From the NCBI GenBank assembly GCA_000004985.1, contig GG738879.1: a DNA stretch of 64,000 bases, one strand, 5' to 3'. The notes beneath the pieces are model-generated. The model had not been told where the DNA came from and did not search any database. It saw nothing but the letters and a program-made list of their open reading frames with translations. The translations under genes were made by a program, and so were the position numbers. The stretch is from Naegleria gruberi. Its lineage: Eukaryota. Positions 48,018 to 62,896 of the stretch are shown in pieces; position 1 is the stretch's first letter, and every line of letters begins with the position of its first letter.

Positions 48018-49978
48018 ATGTCCGAATTGTACCATCCATCACCATCAGACCTCATGTTGGCACCATCAAGTTTGTTGGTGTTTGACTTTGATAGTACATT
48101 GGTTAGAGAGGAAAGTTTGGTCACCATGTTGGAGTATGCTTTGAGAGAAGAATACGGAAATGATGAAGAAAAAATTGAGAAAGCTATTGAACAAATCAAG
48201 GAAATTACAAACAAGGGAATTAAAGGAGAAATTACAATGGATACTTCTTATGCAAACAGAGTTGGTACAGTTAAACCAACAAGAAAACATTTGGAAAAAT
48301 ATTTACAAAGACCAATTGATCAAATTTTAACTCCAAAAATGGATATTGTGAGTAAGTGTAATTTGTGGAATTAATATTTATTGGAAAATTTAGTTCAAAA
48401 TGTTAGAGAGCATTATCCTTCTGTTCAAATTCATGTTATTTCTCAAGGACCAAAAGTAATAGTTGAACATTATTCTAAATTATTATTTGGAATTCCAAGT
48501 GAAAATATTCATGCTGTAAATGTAAATTTCCCAGAGGATGGAGTAGATGTTTCAACTCATGAATATATTTCTCCTCAAGATGAAATGTTAGTGAAAGGAA
48601 AAAGTGGAATTTTACAAAAAGTTATTGATGGAATTAATTCACAATATACCACAACAGGAACAAAGGTTGAAAATATCATTGTCGTTGGAGATGGTGTATC
48701 AGATATGAATATGAAACACAAAGGACCTGCAACAGTTGCCATAGGTTTTGGTGCTCACTTACTTTTCCAAAAAACTAAGGAATTGGCAGATTATTATGTA
48801 ACTGATTGTGATCAATTGAATCAATTATTAATTGAAAGACTTTTAAGAGATATGGTAAGCTATAACTTCTTCCCTGGTCCTGCAACAATTCCAACTGAAA
48901 TCATGTTAAAAGTCAAAGATAATCTTGTTTGCTTTGATAGAGGTATTTCTGTTTTTGAATATTCACACCGTTCTCCAAAATTTTTAAATGTTTTAAGCAA
49001 TGCAGAAAAGAAACTCAGAAAAATTGTAGATATACCAGACGATTATGCTGTTCTCTTCTTACAGTAAGTTTTCATTTTACATATTTTGAAATATTTTGAA
49101 AAAGAGGAGGAGCCTATACTCAATTCTCAGCAATACCAATGAATCTTTGTGAAAATACTGATAATTCTGCCATTTATTTGGTATCTGGTATTTGGTCAAA
49201 GAAGGCCTATCAAGAAGCAAAGGAATTTATGGGTGGAAATGTTCAACAATTGAGTTTAGAAGAAGCTGATACAATTACATCCAATGAATTCTATACTCGT
49301 TGCTCTTATGTTTATTATTGTGATAATGAAACAGTTCATGGTGTTGAGAAGCCGAATGACTTCCTTGACCAAGTCTCCAAAGATGGTAAAATATTAGTTT
49401 GTGATATGAGTTCAAACTTTTTATCTAGACCTGTCAATGTTAGAAAGTATGGTCTCATTTATGCATGTGCCCAAAAGAATTTTGGTATTGCTGGGCTCAC
49501 AATTGTAATTATTAGAAAGGATTTAATTAAGGAAAGGGAAAATTATGTTCCTTCAATGCTCGACTATCAAGCATTATATGAAGAAAAATCACTTCTCAAT
49601 ACACCTGTCACTGCAGCAATTTATGTTGCTGACTTGGTATTTGATTGGATTATTGAGATTGGCGGATTATCTGCTCTGAATGAATTGGCTATTAAGAGAT
49701 CAAATCTGCTCTATGACACTTTAGAAAAATCATCATTCTTTGAAGTTCCAATCAAGGAGGACATTCGTTCAAGAATGAATGTTGTTTTCAAGATTAAGAA
49801 GGAAAGTTTAGAAAAGACTTTTGTTAAGGAAGCTGAAAAGGTTGGATTGATTGGATTGCCAGGTCACAGAAGTGTTGGAGGATTCAGAGCTAGTCTTTAT
49901 AATGGTATGTCAATGAAAGGAGTTGAGAGACTTTGCAAATTTATTCAAGCATTTGAAAACAAGTTCAATACTCAATAA
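48018..49978 (+). CDS. Bifunctional fusion: an N-terminal HAD-superfamily phosphoserine phosphatase (SerB/PSPH-like) joined to phosphoserine aminotransferase (SerC/PSAT). Three exons: 48018..48351, 48394..49063 and 49105..49978. About 625 aa.
   Basis: HAD motif I FDFDSTLVREE (the SerB-type DxDST..E). Motif IV IVVGDGVSDMNM. PSP C-terminus ...ADYYVTDCDQLNQLLIERLL. In the same exon and with no stop, the PSAT N-terminus follows: NFFPGPATIPTEIMLKV...HRSPKF...DYAVLFLQ. After a 41-nt intron come GGAYTQFSAIPMNL...AIYLVSGIWSKKA...KNFGIAGLTIVIIRKD...HRSVGGFRASLYN. Introns of 42 and 41 nt (GTAAGT...ATTTAG and GTAAGT...GAAAAAG) restore the frame. Confidence 0.7.
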
Positions 49979-50951: not shown

Positions 50952-52202
50952 ATGCTTACTAATGAAACATTCTTATTAGAATCCGCTCATCAAACAAGTA
51001 GTAAACTAATCAGTAAGGCACCTAAATGTACTATTGAATCCTTTCAATTATTACTTGGTGCAATTGACTATATCAATGACAATGGCGGACAAGAAACCTT
51101 CCCTAAATTATTAATTTATGATGACACAGCAGCAACAGCAAATCATCATACTACAACAACAACAATAACCGAAGAACTTTCTAATAGTAATTCAATTGAA
51201 GAAGATTATGTACCTCCTTCTCTGACAATTAGTGACGAATCTGAGGATAAATCTTCGGAGGATGAACAAGCATCAACTACACAAACTCAAACTATCACAA
51301 CTCCAAAATCTAAATCAAATAATTCTAAACATTCGAATAGTAGTAATACAAATGGAAAGGCTAGAGGAGGTCATTACCGTAACGGTGTTGATGATTCTTC
51401 TTTAATATGTAGTTGTTGCAAAAGAGATTCATCATCAGTGAGTTTTCTCAAAAACTATAGTATTCATGCAGGTAATATTGACAATTACCGAAACACATTC
51501 CCAGACTATGATGTTGTACCTGGTATTTCATGCATGACATGTTATCATAAGAGTTGGAGATATAGCAAGGGTCTCTATGATCCAAACAAAGCAAGAGGAA
51601 CAGTTAATAAGAGAGAGGGAATTCAAAAGAGTCCTTCTCCATCTTCTTCAACTCCATCCTCCTCAACTCGTAAGAAGAACGCATCTCAAAAGAGAAAATC
51701 CAATAGTAATGCAGTTGTTGAACAACAACAACTTGATAATGAAGTAAACTCCTCTGAAGATGTCAAGAGTAAACCAAGAAAGATTTCAAAGAGAAGACAA
51801 AATTCCTCTCCTTCATCCAATCAATCTAATGGTAATGATAATTCAAATCAAAATGATTTGGAATTTGAAAATCAAATGAATGAAAATCAATCATACACCA
51901 CCTCTACATATGAAAATTCTCAGGGGTTACATCATTCTTTGAGATTGGTTTTGAAATTTGTTTGGATAGAGCAAGGTGATGATGGAGAAGTGTATTCTTG
52001 CCCAATGAGTTTAGATTTTGTTCCTACCACTCTAACTTCAATCAAATCTCTGGTTATTGGAAAATTAAAGACTAAATTGTCTGGTTATGAATGTGACTCA
52101 ATTGTGTGGTGTCACGATAATCAGAAAACTCTCCTAACTGATACTGAATTACAGCAAAAAGCTTTGAGAAATGATGATATTCTCATTGTGAATGTAAAAT
52201 AA
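50952..52202 (+). CDS. Hypothetical S/T/N-rich protein with a Cys-rich segment (CSCC...CMTC), 416 aa.
   Basis: Complete ORF from a real ATG. No confident domain. Confidence 0.35.
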   Translation: MLTNETFLLESAHQTSSKLISKAPKCTIESFQLLLGAIDYINDNGGQETFPKLLIYDDTAATANHHTTTTTITEELSNSNSIEEDYVPPSLTISDESEDKSSEDEQASTTQTQTITTPKSKSNNSKHSNSSNTNGKARGGHYRNGVDDSSLICSCCKRDSSSVSFLKNYSIHAGNIDNYRNTFPDYDVVPGISCMTCYHKSWRYSKGLYDPNKARGTVNKREGIQKSPSPSSSTPSSSTRKKNASQKRKSNSNAVVEQQQLDNEVNSSEDVKSKPRKISKRRQNSSPSSNQSNGNDNSNQNDLEFENQMNENQSYTTSTYENSQGLHHSLRLVLKFVWIEQGDDGEVYSCPMSLDFVPTTLTSIKSLVIGKLKTKLSGYECDSIVWCHDNQKTLLTDTELQQKALRNDDILIVNVK

Positions 52203-52679
52203 ATGCATTGAATAGTTCAAATTTTGTGTCTTTATCTAAACAACAAACATAGGAAAAGCTGTGGTAATCGATGCAAAAATGTCCTTAAAGCTGCAAATAA
52301 TTTATTGAACAAGTTTAAAACGGAGAGTTTCACCTTTTAGGGGATCATTCGAAACATGCTGGAATAAAGATTATTAAGGCTGGTCCAAAATGTGGTATAC
52401 TATCTGGGAGTATTTCATTCATAATCTCCACATTCAAATTATTATATTTTCAATTTCACAATAGTTTATTCGAATCTATTGTATTCGTTTAGTGGTGTGG
52501 AAATGTGAAAGAACCTCTACTAGTTTTGATATCATTTTTTCTAGCCTTTTTTTGAACAATGATTTGTATTGCAAAATAAAGCCTTCTGGAAGTGGCGCCA
52601 AACTTTGATTTAAAAAACTCAACACTGCAACACCAACCTGAAACAAACTCAAAAAAAAATACTCAACTCTTTCACTAAA

Positions 52680-54422
52680 ATGGTAAGTTTTCTCTTGTAT
52701 TATGTGAGTCACTAATCAAGCCTTAAAAATTAGTCTGCTGTTGCACAACAATCAAAGACGCAATCCATCACACATGAAGAGTCTTTGACTCTAATGAGAA
52801 ATTTGATGAGAACTGCAATATCTTCTGTTTGCTATTTGAGAAATTTATTTCCTGAGGATTGTTTTCAAGACAAGTCTCTGAGTGGAATCCAAATCAAGTC
52901 TCTTCAGCCTTCAAATGAGGAGGCAAGAACACTTATCGATTGGTTAGAGAAGGGTGTGTTTGAAGCCTTGAAGAAGAAATATCTGAGAACTATAATCTTT
53001 GGAGTCTGTTCTGATCCAAGTAGAGAAATTGATTCAATGCTTGAGAGCTATGAATGTAAGTATTACACAAACTGGTTTGTTCAATTATCTGCTCTATCAG
53101 TCAAAGTAACCTATCCGGATAAGGAAGAAGGCCAGTTGAACATCTCAAGAGCAGCTGATTCGAACAAGACTAATAAGAAGATTGGAATTAAAGGAACTCA
53201 AACCAAACAAGAAATTACTCAATCAATGGTTATGATGCTTAGAACCCTCATCACTCTTGCTCAGACACTTCAACCAATTCCAGAAACTAGATATATTACC
53301 ATGAAACTACTCTACTATGAAGATGTTACTCCTAGAGATTATGAGCCATCTTTCTTTAGAGCTTTGAGAGAGGATGAATCCAGAAAATTCAATCAAGATT
53401 TTGTCAAACTGAAGATTGGGCAAGTTCAAACTCAATATCACTCGTTGAATATTCGTGTAAGAACCGCATCTGAATCATTTGAAGATGAAGATGGTAAATC
53501 AGTCACCTCAGAGATGTTATCCTCCTGCCCTATAGACAAGAATAATTCACATCCAACCTCCTCTCAATGGGCTGTCAATGTACCAGAGAATAAGCTCGAA
53601 ACAAAGAAGGAATATGATAGCGATTCGACTCAGCTTTCCCAACAGGATGACAACACTAAGCAATCAAGCAGTTGTGAAGAGAAATTATTCCTTGCAGATT
53701 TGGAAAAGATTGGTTGGTTCAATTTCCAACTCAAATCTGTCAGTAAACTATTATCCAACAAGTATCCATCTGTCACGGGCGAAATAGCTAAAGAATTGGT
53801 AATTGCCAAGAGAACCAAACTGGTCAAAGATATGGAAGATCATGAGAAGACCTATTACAAAGCACTTGCATATGTTTTAGAAGAGGATCATATTACAGCA
53901 AGTTCTCTATCCAGTGAATTAGATATCAGTTCCTACTCAGCAACCAAGTTAATCTCCCAAATGGAAAAGGAGGGTCTCCTTAAAGCTGCCTCAACAAAGA
54001 GAAAAGGGAAGAAGGTAATGCACAACAATAAGAGACTTGAAGAAGCAAAAGAGTTCATTGAATTTGAACAGTATTTGAAGCAACCTAAGACTGAATCCAC
54101 CTCCTCTCCATCCAAATCACCAGAAGCTAAAAAGAAGCAAGAATTTGATTATTCGGACTCTGATTCAGAAATTTCAAATCATGAAGAGAGTGATATCAAA
54201 CCAACTCCCAAAAAGGCTGTTCATTCCTCACCAACCGTCACTAGTCCACCAAAGCAACCTGAATCAGTTGATAAAAGAGGTGTAAAGAGAAAGACTATTT
54301 CTCAATTTGAAGTCAGTCACAGTCAAGATGAAATAACTGCCAATGATAGAGAGAATGAAGAAAATCCATCATCTTCTAAGGTGGATTTGGATTCAATCAA
54401 CTACAGTTACTCAATTTTGTGA
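52680..54422 (+). CDS. HORMA-domain protein (Hop1/HORMAD/ASY1-like meiotic axis component). The model is ATG (52680..52682) directly followed by a 51-nt intron, then 52734..54422.
   Basis: HORMA N-terminal signature ...ESLTLMRNLMRTAISSVCYLRNLFPEDCF...GIQIKSL...WLEKGVFEALKKKYL...IIFGVCSD. The safety-belt region TQSMVMMLRTLITLAQTLQP is present. AAAATG|GTAAGT...ACTAAT...TTAG lies immediately upstream of an in-frame continuation (SAVAQQSKTQSITHEESLTL-). The intronless alternative is ATG at 52794. Confidence 0.6.
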
Positions 54423-54673
54423 AGAGAGAAATTGGCTGAAACACTGTCCCGCCAGCTTACAACGGCTCAAAATTATTTTTGTGGTGTTGAAAAAAATATT
54501 AGAACGATCTATTAGGTTGTGATAAACTAACAGCAGCGAGTGCCATCAAGTCTATCATCAAAACTTGTATCAACAGTTGTTTCAAGACATTTGTAAAATA
54601 GAATTAACCTTTCAACAACAATTGTAGTAGTTGGATAATTTAAATCTACATTTCGATACAACACGAACATCAA

Positions 54674-55021
54674 ATGAATAGAAACGACAAATTAATACCT
54701 GGTTACCCAGTAAAATCGGCAACAATCACTATTGATAATAAGAATGTTTTAATCAGTGATCTCTCCGAAACTCCTGGAGGTACAATTTATGGCACAACTC
54801 CTGGTGGTACAAGACGTATTTACACTAGAAACGCTTTGTTGTTATATCGTAATTCACCAATGGCTAAAAGTCCACCGATTAATTTACCAACCATTCCAGG
54901 TATTACCACTGATGAGGATCAATCTTCTTTGTACACCAAGAAGAAGAAGGAAGTTGAACAAAAAGAAGAAAGTGATGAAGAAATTTTGAGTGATGATGAA
55001 GATCAATTCCAAATGGATTAA
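54674..55021 (+). CDS. eIF4E-binding protein (4E-BP) homolog, 115 aa.
   Basis: Paired TTPGGT motifs (TIYGTTPGGTRRIY). The eIF4E-binding YxxxxLL core is in RIYTRNALLLYRNSP. There is a PTIPG motif and a C-terminal TOS-like FQMD. Confidence 0.75.
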   Translation: MNRNDKLIPGYPVKSATITIDNKNVLISDLSETPGGTIYGTTPGGTRRIYTRNALLLYRNSPMAKSPPINLPTIPGITTDEDQSSLYTKKKKEVEQKEESDEEILSDDEDQFQMD

Positions 55022-55524
55022 TTTAATTGAATCTTATTCTAACACCTAACACATACATATTTACTTTTTGAATTGGTTTTCATCATCTTCCGTAATATAT
55101 TAGGAGTTTTTCAACAGGCCTACAATTCCATTTCCCAACCCTAAACTTTTAGTCAGACTTTTTTGATAGTACTAAAATACTATTCAAATGATTTTACTCT
55201 CTACCCAATAGTTAACTCCCTGACTACGAAATTGTAAATAAAGAACCCTTTTTGATGATGAAAATTATTAAATGTTAACTATTCTTCTAGAGTTTGATAA
55301 AATCAAAAGTATCTTTCTCATCAAAATCTAAAGATATTATCCAAATAATGAATATATTTTGAAGAGACACAATGAACAGTTATCATCATCCAACACAAAA
55401 ATTCTGCACATGGTGATGATGGCCCAGAAGATATTGTACGTTCAATAATAGAGGTTGCAAGTAGTGTTGGGAACAAGCAGATAATTGCAACAACGGAGTG
55501 GATGTGAAGTTGAAATAACAAAAA

Positions 55525-62742: not shown

Positions 62743-62824
62743 ATTGAATAAAACAATCACTCAATTTTAGATATTTCCTTAATATTATTGAATGAAAACA
62801 AAAAAAGGAAAGATTAAAAAGGTG

Positions 62825-62896
62825 TAGGAAGACAGGGAATCGAACCCTGATCTTAGGAACCACAATCCCATGTTCTACCACTGAACTATCTCCCTT
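62825..62896 (-). tRNA. tRNA-His (anticodon GUG).
   Basis: Minus-strand cloverleaf: acceptor AGGGAGA/TCTTCCT (one G-U), D-arm GTTC-AGTGGTA-GAAC, anticodon stem TGGGA/TCCTA with loop TTGTGGT (GTG), T-arm CAGGG-TTCGATT-CCCTG. No encoded CCA. Confidence 0.8.

Follow-up and report, generated by a model that had tools for sequence, protein, structure and literature searches.

The gene studied here has its closest described relatives among the meiotic chromosome-axis HORMADs, yeast Hop1, plant ASY1/PAIR2 and mammalian HORMAD1. [quoted passage not shown] Holozoan Hop1 winged helices bind DNA via their canonical face and wing arginines, and in the P. miniata and S. mansoni domains arginines of the wing and of the recognition helix are required for DNA binding. 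Self-interaction between HORMA and closure motif, and remodelling by Pch2, are described in at least part of the literature on the family. For Naegleria gruberi, one protein (D2VL39) has already been tabulated with a HORMA domain, one wHTH and a helical region described as 'cryptic domain ... possibly remnant of former wHTH'; its closure motif was marked '?' and the loss ascribed to misprediction (Milano et al., 2024, EMBO J, Table EV1, PMC10907721).

The N. gruberi NEG-M meiotic HORMAD gene analysed in this work, at positions 52680–54422 (+) of a 64-kb stretch of DNA (the window), is that same locus: read without splicing from 52794, its ORF is 100% identical to XP_002675215.1/D2VL39 (= EFC42471.1), "meiotic specific asynaptic protein". 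Both the gene and its architecture have been published before, and the new point is the deletion of its tail, as the window DNA itself lacks the closure motif that the table entry treats as mispredicted. The whole explanation proposed here, a single-copy N. gruberi gene orthologous to the meiotic HORMAD of the chromosome axis (Hop1 in yeast, ASY1/PAIR2 in plants, HORMAD1 in mammals) with the gene model, domain plan and tail loss described below, is very probably correct. The features of the gene are listed in Table 1.

Table 1. Features of the N. gruberi NEG-M HORMAD gene, in window positions
Feature	Positions	Strand	Remarks
Exon 1	52680..52682	+	Lone ATG; A-rich context; first ATG after a 6-codon upstream mini-ORF
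Intron 1	52683..52733	+	51 nt, GTAAGT...ACTAAT...TTAG, phase 0
Exon 2	52734..53055	+	Conserved N-terminal tail and first half of HORMA
Conserved N-terminal tail	52734-52793	+	aa 2-21, SAVAQQSKTQSITHEESLTL
HORMA domain	52782..53441	+	aa 18-222 (spliced protein, 548 aa); coding region interrupted by intron 2; PF02301
Intron 2	53056..53100	+	45 nt, GTAAGT...TATCAG, phase 1
Exon 3	53101..54422	+	Rest of HORMA, linker, chromatin-binding region, disordered tail, stop TGA (54420-54422)
SQ/TQ cluster DSDSTQLSQQ	53616..53645	+	aa 281-290, disordered linker
Three-helix subdomain	53664..53831	+	aa 297-352, N-terminal to the winged helix; AF2 model
Winged helix-turn-helix and capping helix	53838..54068	+	aa 355-431; basic wing STKRKGKKV
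Conserved basic and SQ motif KRKTISQFEVSHSQDE	54285..54332	+	aa 504-519
Deletion junction	54382..54383	+	2-bp TG microhomology
Neo-C-terminus DLDSINYSYSIL and TGA	54384..54422	+	Former 3'UTR or intergenic DNA

The missing C-terminal tail

Set against the environmental contig L004, which is 99% identical, 215 bp are missing from the window at 54382/54383 (L004 1706–1920); one reference sequence is here compared with one environmental contig and a second assembly of the same run. By blastn, L004 1–1705 matches window 52679–54383 at 99.1% and L004 1921–2900 matches window 54382–55361 at 99.9%. The deleted piece comprises the last 24 codons (STVVEPIEQKKRKLYRDPKKVSSL), the stop, and then 140 nt of 3'UTR, and the ORF of the window extends 12 codons into former 3'UTR beyond the junction. 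The bases that encode the neo-tail (peptide written out as NPSSSKVDLDSINYSYSIL) lie, in L004, 140 nt downstream of the true stop, and DLDSINYSYSIL is present in no relative aligned. Where the N. lovaniensis, L003 (a contig resembling N. fowleri) and Willaertia magna proteins end in ...KVSTVVEPIQQKKRKFYRDPKK..., the window protein ends in ...KVDLDSINYSYSIL. The missing tail is a deletion in the sequence and not a gene misprediction, and the stop at 54420–54422, where the gene ends in the earlier note, is not ancestral.

With the removal of STVVEPIEQKKRKLYRDPKKVSSL, the window sequence carries no closure motif at the extreme C-terminus; the 99% identical allele (P0031) and every orthologue have one, and the pattern K(V/M)ST.xEPIxQKKRK is conserved in nearly all relatives aligned. 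The AF2 model of the N. lovaniensis orthologue shows order in only one part of the 130-residue tail, VSTVVEPIQQ (560–569), which forms strands with a pLDDT of about 85; pLDDT and secondary structure are those expected of a docked closure motif, and on this basis the segment is predicted to be docked. Two peptides, KVSTVVEPIEQKKRKLYRDPKK and NPSSSKVSTVVEPIEQKKRKLYRDPKKVSSL, are putative closure motifs. The sequence KRRKFSEPK at the C-terminus of human HORMAD1 is similar to KKRKFYRDPK in Naegleria relatives. A search for closure-motif partners had been proposed in the earlier note; the motif whose partners were to be sought is itself missing from the window sequence. Because this allele lacks the closure motif, its family membership rests on orthology.

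Other origins of the divergent C-terminus were rejected. A third intron or a frameshift was discarded, L004 showing a simple 215-bp deletion, and the L004 comparison likewise disposed of the +1 frame 'STTVTQFCEERNWLKHCP' and of the fragment 'FVKREIG' as the lost tail. A downstream 'SSKLVSTVV...' (54555–54581), joined by a 153-nt GTGGAT...CTAACAG intron, was not retained either; the 'KLVSTVV' stretch is unchanged in L004, where it lies downstream of the true stop, and its tblastn match has an E value of 7.7. Among the searches for further N. gruberi sequences, a scan with the C-terminal 206 aa yielded 85 pattern matches, none of them confirmed, and the 114-aa C-terminal tail had no match in a protein search, self included, probably owing to low complexity.

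The 215-bp gap may be an assembly or cloning artefact, or may be confined to a single haplotype if the genome is heterozygous or polyploid, in which case the cells would still make intact HORMAD; we regard this as a serious possibility, although short of an even chance. The deletion is carried by one sequence only, no second N. gruberi data set having been found; the remaining ORF is undamaged, and strong purifying selection is seen outside the gap, with 11 synonymous and 3 non-synonymous coding differences between the window and L004. The resulting pN/pS of 0.07 indicates that the gene was under purifying selection until recently. An error, though one of prediction, was also assumed by Milano et al. 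(2024). On the other side, the junction is clean, with a 2-bp microhomology and no flanking repeat that could collapse the assembly, its two flanks align at the identities given above without further indels, and the missing piece is absent from the rest of the 64 kb, where neither the deleted 215 bp nor the closure peptide has a significant copy. Looked up by exact match, the annotated protein and the product of the adjacent 4E-BP gene led to one ENA contig only, and the 24-nt left-flank pattern had 0 matches in JGI metagenome contigs.

It is improbable that a meiotic gene no longer in use is decaying in a clonal, long-cultured laboratory line, with the tail deletion as its first disabling lesion. 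Such decay would fit the removal by the deletion of the most conserved tail motif, and we know of no sexual cycle for the NEG-M strain. Nevertheless, the 1.6-kb coding sequence contains no frameshift or stop, it differs from the wild-type-like allele by only 3 amino acids, none in an invariant column, and the consensus splice sites of both introns are intact.

Start and introns

The gene that carries this deletion is predicted to have three exons, an ATG, 322 nt and 1322 nt, separated by introns of 51 nt and 45 nt, and a product 548 aa long. The start, an ATG followed at once by a 51-nt intron, had been proposed in the earlier note; it is indeed present in the window and is supported by an equivalent intron in three orthologues: in N. 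lovaniensis (L001), the Naegleria sp. contig (L003) and Willaertia magna (L002), a GTAAGT/GTAGGT intron follows codon 3, 3 and 2 respectively. All three orthologues start at the same place and encode an N-terminus of the form M(S/P)..AQQS(K/R)T.S(I/V)T.EESLTL, whose conservation in the alignment includes orthologues P0002 and P0003 and more distant relatives, and intron 1 is 100% identical in the environmental contig L004. The approximately 20 residues by which this start extends the HORMA N-terminus are conserved in the orthologues, the HORMA profile reaches position 1 only with the extension, and the human HORMAD1 alignment starts at residue 13 of the extended model. The SAVAQQSKTQSITHEESLTL frame is closed upstream by the TAG of the intron 1 acceptor and contains no ATG before 52794, so that these 20 residues can be translated only if intron 1 is spliced.

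The second intron was missed in the earlier note. Its position and phase (T/GTAAGT...CAG/TC, with slashes at the splice sites) are common to the three orthologues, where it is 48, 50 and 69 nt long, and the 50-nt version cannot be read through. In the window it is in frame and stop-free, which is why the public model XP_002675215.1 keeps it. Splicing it out yields ESYEFKVTYP, which matches all relatives, and increases the Pfam HORMA score by 13–19 bits, while both corrections together raise this score from 197.8 to 219.1 bits. Markov shuffles of the window contain the GTAAGT..YTAAY..YAG pattern about 2.9 times on each strand, versus 2 observed; as the motif alone is not above chance, the intron calls rest on comparison.

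Judged by the alignment with relatives, the public model is wrong, as it lacks 21 N-terminal residues and, by keeping the 45-nt intron, contains 15 spurious residues inside the HORMA domain; by the same comparison the gene model of the earlier note, with its ATG–intron start, is right and better than the public annotation, apart from the missed second intron. It is very unlikely that the single-exon model is correct, with a start at ATG 52794 and 53056–53100 coding. The ORF is open from 52794 to 54422, with the 45 nt in frame, and this is the deposited annotation, but conservation of the 20 upstream residues extends to distant relatives and human HORMAD1. Together with that of intron 1, conservation of the N-terminus speaks against transcripts that start only at 52794. 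No relative has the 15 extra residues, and these coincide with a GTAAGT...CAG element at a conserved position; in one species the length of this element is not divisible by 3. The Pfam score of the single-exon model is 21 bits lower.

Family and domain plan

The three-exon gene encodes a Hop1/HORMAD-like HORMA protein, as the earlier note had recognized. The spliced extended protein matches the full PF02301 HORMA profile (1–209, E 5.9e-65), and the best solved HORMA relative is mammalian HORMAD1 (PDB 8j69), at 1.3e-29 by sequence and with a TM of 0.82 to the orthologue model. Among the PDB sequences searched with the protein, HIM-3 matches at about 1e-10 and there is no match to Mad2 or Rev7. 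In a structure search with the N. lovaniensis orthologue model, HORMAD1 (1.4e-18) comes ahead of HIM-3/HTP-1/2 (1e-14 to 1e-12), and these ahead of REV7/MAD2 (1e-11 to 1e-10). By both comparisons the HORMA domain is closer to meiotic HORMADs than to Mad2 or Rev7, and the outcome that would have spoken against the earlier note, best matches to the latter two, was not seen. Relatives in the databases bear the names ASY1/PAIR2. That the protein is instead a non-meiotic HORMA protein, of the Mad2, Rev7, p31comet or Atg13/101 type, can be dismissed almost outright. The fold is common to all, and there are structural matches to REV7 and MAD2 at 1e-10 to 1e-11, but the scores of HORMAD1 and of the nematode meiotic HORMADs are far better, a Hop1-type winged helix is present, the orthologues carry a HORMAD-type C-terminal motif, and similarity to ASY1/PAIR2 extends along the full length (31–34% over about 80% of the protein).

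The 'meiotic' label of this HORMAD rests on orthology. The gene has its neighbourhood and both intron positions in common with family members of related species. The N. lovaniensis (C9374_010189), N. fowleri-like (L003) and W. magna (ABK040_006096) proteins are 48–58% identical to it over the full length; their genes have in common with it the two intron positions and the downstream neighbour, a 4E-BP gene, which follows the HORMAD gene in four genomes, and the proteins the same succession of HORMA, SQ/TQ, helical subdomain, wHTH and basic tail. Rfam and tRNA scans gave no match within or near the gene. 'Macrocyst'-stage material, suggested in the earlier note for RNA-seq, is not applicable to N. 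gruberi, which is no dictyostelid.

In order, the protein has a short flexible N-terminus, the HORMA domain, a linker that is acidic and contains an SQ/TQ cluster, a chromatin-binding region made up of a three-helix subdomain and one winged helix, and a long disordered tail, basic and rich in serine. The TQ(L/V/I)(S/T) core of the SQ/TQ cluster is conserved among heterolobosean relatives and, by analogy with the SQ/TQ cluster of Hop1, DSDSTQLSQQ likely provides candidate ATM/ATR (Mec1/Tel1)-type phosphorylation sites. The three-helix subdomain (AF2 helices 2–17, 24–30 and 40–57, pLDDT 86–92) stands in place of the first of the two plant wHTH domains, and the second one, in PAIR2 residues 358–470, aligns with the Naegleria wHTH (E 1e-10). 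The helix–turn–helix-like segment that the earlier note placed in the C-terminal tail is real, but it is central: ITASSLSS...LLKAAS (aa 373–406, 53892–53993) lies within the predicted winged helix (pLDDT 91). This winged helix, between HORMA and the C-terminal tail, is a homologue of the Hop1/ASY1 wHTH, of the single-wHTH class (Milano et al., 2024). Its closest structural and profile matches are the holozoan and yeast Hop1 regions (PDB 9mug, 9myp and 8CWW), and its basic wing, KRKGKK, is conserved with KGKRLGR of the Hop1 region; from this conservation with the P. miniata and S. mansoni domains, we infer that it may bind DNA or nucleosomes. In contrast with Hop1, Naegleria has no PHD: as stated in the earlier note there is no zinc finger or PHD, with no such Pfam match and no cysteine cluster in the protein, and the segment N-terminal to the wHTH, in which Pfam found no PHD finger, is a three-helix bundle with no cysteine/histidine cluster. 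Naegleria keeps the chromatin-binding region that mammals have lost. Further downstream, the KRKTISQFEVSHSQDE motif is kept in all heterolobosean relatives and recognizable in more distant ones in the alignment.

Probable mechanism and meaning

From what is described for the family, the HORMA safety belt would wrap short closure motifs of an SYCP2/Red1-type axis-core protein, and Tromer et al. (2021) made use of an SYCP2-type protein from N. gruberi. In intact relatives HORMA would also bind its own C-terminus, producing a self-closed monomer or head-to-tail chains that the Pch2/TRIP13 ATPase could reopen, while the winged helix and its basic wing would keep the protein on DNA or chromatin and the SQ/TQ sites would be likely ATM/ATR targets. 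The truncated protein is predicted to bind chromatin and foreign closure motifs still, with no self-closure and no self-oligomerization. We propose only tentatively, and consider rather unlikely, that the deletion is real and affects the sole NEG-M allele, so that the HORMAD of this strain would load on chromatin and axis-core proteins without closing on itself or chaining head-to-tail.

To our knowledge, sex has never been observed in Naegleria. The gene belongs to the standard evidence for a meiotic toolkit in this deep-branching eukaryote with no observed sexual cycle, and its domain plan is used in reconstructing the ancestral HORMAD. The public protein model used in comparative studies has a faulty N-terminus, the end acted on by Pch2/TRIP13-type remodellers in other HORMA proteins, and 15 spurious HORMA residues. 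The published '?' for the closure motif is explained here by a deletion in the reference DNA; the species has the motif, as a near-identical environmental allele shows. Should NEG-M really carry the deletion, work on meiosis or on HORMAD function in this strain would involve a truncated protein. Were it also the sole allele, a lineage in which sex has never been seen would carry a natural separation-of-function truncation, which could mark the onset of meiosis loss in culture or contribute to the non-observation of sex.

Gene identity and exon structure

The window is AT-rich eukaryotic DNA (G+C 33%), and its long ORF at 52785–54422 (+), read from ATG 52794, is identical at every residue to XP_002675215.1 (EFC42471.1, UniProt D2VL39), the 'meiotic specific asynaptic protein' of Naegleria gruberi strain NEG-M. 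The source organism is therefore a heterolobosean amoeboflagellate, and the macrocyst stage mentioned in the earlier note, which implied a dictyostelid, does not apply. An earlier survey took XP_002675215 as the Naegleria Hop1/ASY1 homologue. In a survey of 149 meiotic HORMADs, most non-opisthokont eukaryotes had one or two winged helices instead of the fungal PHD–wHTH, and the N. gruberi protein was listed in Table EV1 (EFC42471.1, D2VL39, 542 aa) with a HORMA domain, one wHTH and a '?' for the closure motif (Milano et al., 2024; PMC10907721). Gene, family and domain plan are thus not new; what is added is a corrected three-exon gene model and a deletion in the reference sequence.

The Hop1/HORMAD-like assignment proposed in the earlier note is upheld, as Mad2 and Rev7 were the best matches neither by sequence nor by Foldseek. 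A sequence search of solved structures returned HORMAD1 (1.3e-29) and Caenorhabditis elegans HIM-3 (about 1e-10), and no Mad2 or Rev7. Foldseek, queried with the N. lovaniensis orthologue model, placed HORMAD1 at the top (1.4e-18, TM 0.82), and HIM-3/HTP-1/HTP-2 (1e-14 to 1e-12) ahead of REV7 and MAD2 (1e-11 to 1e-10). In a large protein database, HORMA proteins of Naegleria, Willaertia and Acrasis came first, followed by plant ASY1/PAIR2 with a coverage of about 80%. Orthology is supported by synteny: a 4E-BP gene lies 3' of the HORMA gene both in the window and in each of the four related contigs, those of N. lovaniensis and Willaertia magna, a third Naegleria contig and an environmental contig.

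The gene had been proposed to start with an ATG followed at once by a 51-nt intron, which adds N-terminal residues, and all the sequence elements quoted in that proposal are found in place. The frame that encodes SAVAQQSKTQSITHEESLTL is stopped just 5' by the TAG within the putative acceptor site and has no ATG before 52794, so that SAVAQQSKTQSITHEESLTL can be made only if ATG 52680–52682 is spliced to 52734. By itself the intron 1 motif is not rarer than chance (2 seen versus about 2.9 expected per strand in shuffles), and it is the comparison with relatives that is decisive for the predicted start. In N. lovaniensis, the third Naegleria contig (N. fowleri-like) and W. magna, a GT(A/G)AGT/GTAGGT intron directly follows codon 3, 3 and 2, respectively, and all three loci encode the N-terminus M..(A)AQQS(K/R)T.S(I/V)T.EESLTL. 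The human HORMAD1 alignment begins at residue 13 of the extended protein, the first position of the Pfam HORMA profile is matched only when the extension is included, and in the orthologue's AlphaFold model the HORMA domain opens with a helix that begins at residue 15 and would be truncated if translation started at Met22. The only other ATG of the window directly followed by a donor-like GTATGT is at 49902 (+) (ATAATGGTATGTCAATG), which may mark a further gene whose first exon is the start codon alone.

A second intron, absent from the earlier note, lies at 53056–53100 (+). Its 45 nt begin with GTAAGT, end with CAG, are in frame and contain no stop, and the public model therefore reads through them (ESYE-CKYYTNWFVQLSALSV-KVTYP); the corresponding stretch is ESYEF(K/N)(V/I)(T/S)YP in all relatives. 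At the three orthologous loci, introns of identical position and phase (T|GTAAGT...CAG|TC) are 48, 50 and 69 nt long and share no internal sequence similarity; read-through is impossible for the 50-nt intron. Splicing out the 45 nt raises the Pfam score by 13–19 bits (annotated model, 197.8; with the N-terminus, 206.4; with intron 2 spliced, 217.0; with both, 219.1). Comparison with orthologous sequences thus establishes the predicted three-exon structure, and this corrected model is the first contribution of the analysis.

TTTSSCGC occurs just twice in the 64 kb, and the E2F-type site upstream of the gene is one of these occurrences; its conservation 5' of the orthologues is not strict, with TTTGCGCC near −110 in W. 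magna. The mini-ORF is likely within the HORMAD 5' leader. The 416-aa ORF has no Pfam match, and the N. lovaniensis gene at the matching position (567 aa) is likewise without a recorded family.

Features of the HORMAD gene, its protein and its neighbourhood
Feature	Position	Strand	Remarks
416-aa ORF	50952–52202	+	serine/asparagine/threonine-rich; upstream of HORMAD gene
Upstream mini-ORF	52559–52579	+	six codons (ATGATTTGTATTGCAAAATAA); about 100 nt before HORMAD start codon
E2F-type site GGCGCCAAA	52594–52602	+	perfect; TTTGGCGCC on opposite strand; 85 nt upstream of ATG
Corrected gene	from ATG 52680	+	ATG, 51-nt intron, 322 nt, 45-nt intron, 1322 nt; 548 aa
Intron 1	52683–52733	+	51 nt, GTAAGT...ACTAAT...TTAG, between ATG (52680–52682) and 52734
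Three helices	aa 297–352		predicted structure
Helix, short strand, helix, helix, two-strand wing, capping helix	aa 355–431		predicted structure
eIF4E-binding protein gene	54674–55021	+	115 aa; Pfam eIF_4EBP 2.9e-34; directly 3' of HORMAD gene
tRNA-His (GTG) gene	62824–62895	-	sole Rfam or ARAGORN match in window

The winged helix

Residues 296–432 were modelled from a ten-sequence alignment (mean pLDDT 91.3). The helix–turn–helix-like segment that the earlier note had recognized in place of a zinc finger or PHD (aa 373–406) corresponds in the model to helices 2 and 3 and the beginning of the wing, and Pfam gives no PHD or zinc-finger signal. Foldseek with the modelled region ranked 9mug and 9myp within the top four, the region profile matches the Patiria miniata Hop1 chromatin-binding region (4.9e-8), and BLASTP aligns the region with residues 358–470 of rice PAIR2, the second plant winged helix (1e-10). 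DNA binding via the canonical face and the wing arginines was demonstrated by experiment for the animal domains; the Naegleria wing KRKGKK aligns with their basic wing, which by analogy suggests that the Naegleria winged helix also binds DNA.

A deletion of the closure motif in the reference sequence

All aligned relatives save one truncated sequence finish in a conserved K(V/M)ST(V/I)xEPIxQKKRKxYRDPK, in which Ser561 and Gln569 (N. lovaniensis numbering) belong to the few columns that hardly vary across the family alignment. AlphaFold predicts the tail of the N. lovaniensis protein, roughly 130 residues, as disordered (pLDDT about 30) except for VSTVVEPIQQ (560–569), which forms two short strands (pLDDT about 85), as a HORMA-docked closure motif would be expected to do. 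The window protein departs from its relatives after ...NPSSSKV and stops 12 codons further. Two other proteins cluster with the annotated protein at 90% identity; both come from environmental run ERR1078381 and end ...NPSSSKVSTVVEPIEQKKRKLYRDPKKVSSL. Positions 1–1705 of their contig, the environmental contig L004, align with 52679–54383 (99.1%) and positions 1921–2900 with 54382–55361 (99.9%), and 215 bp are therefore absent from the window; the two blocks share a TG microhomology where they meet (54382/54383). In L004 these 215 bp comprise the final 24 codons with their stop codon, followed by 140 nt of 3'UTR, and the window tail DLDSINYSYSIL* comes from DNA that is untranslated there; neither the 215 bp nor the closure peptide has a copy elsewhere in the 64 kb. 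This alignment shows that the putative closure motif is absent from the reference DNA through a deletion and not through misprediction, which is the second contribution of the analysis.

The 215-bp gap may also be an artefact of the assembly or a deletion on one haplotype only, a serious though less probable reading, since metagenome scans, a protein search and exact look-ups yielded no second N. gruberi data set. Window and L004 differ by 11 synonymous and 3 non-synonymous changes, and the resulting pN/pS of 0.07 indicates that purifying selection has acted on the gene in this lineage and that the deletion, if real, must be recent. Divergence shifts sharply at the junction, with 15 differences over the 1705 nt on its 5' side (3.3% at synonymous sites) and 1 over the 980 nt on its 3' side, which could reflect haplotype recombination or a chimeric metagenome assembly; in the Logan assembly of that run (L005), 2 of 1526 positions differ from L004. 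Rescue of the tail by a third intron or a frameshift was rejected, as the several candidate fragments turned out to be chance resemblances. SSKLVSTVV (54555–54581, +), in the main frame, resembles the true motif start SSSKVSTVV, and the nearby ELTFQQQL resembles EPIQQKK; both occur untranslated in the intact allele and are therefore chance look-alikes, which could misdirect gene modelling.

Predicted consequences for the meiotic axis

The fold assignments are firm, and the family (Hop1, ASY1, HORMAD1) suggests how such a protein would act. The HORMA domain would capture closure motifs of an axis-core protein and of its own tail, Pch2/TRIP13 would reopen it, and the winged helix would anchor the protein to chromatin; the conserved TQ/SQ sites at aa 281–290 and in FEVSHSQDE (aa 511–519) would be checkpoint-kinase targets. 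An SYCP2-type protein was reported for N. gruberi (Tromer et al., 2021), which makes an axis partner of the HORMAD plausible. The protein encoded by the reference sequence is thus predicted to keep chromatin and partner binding, without self-closure or head-to-tail assembly.
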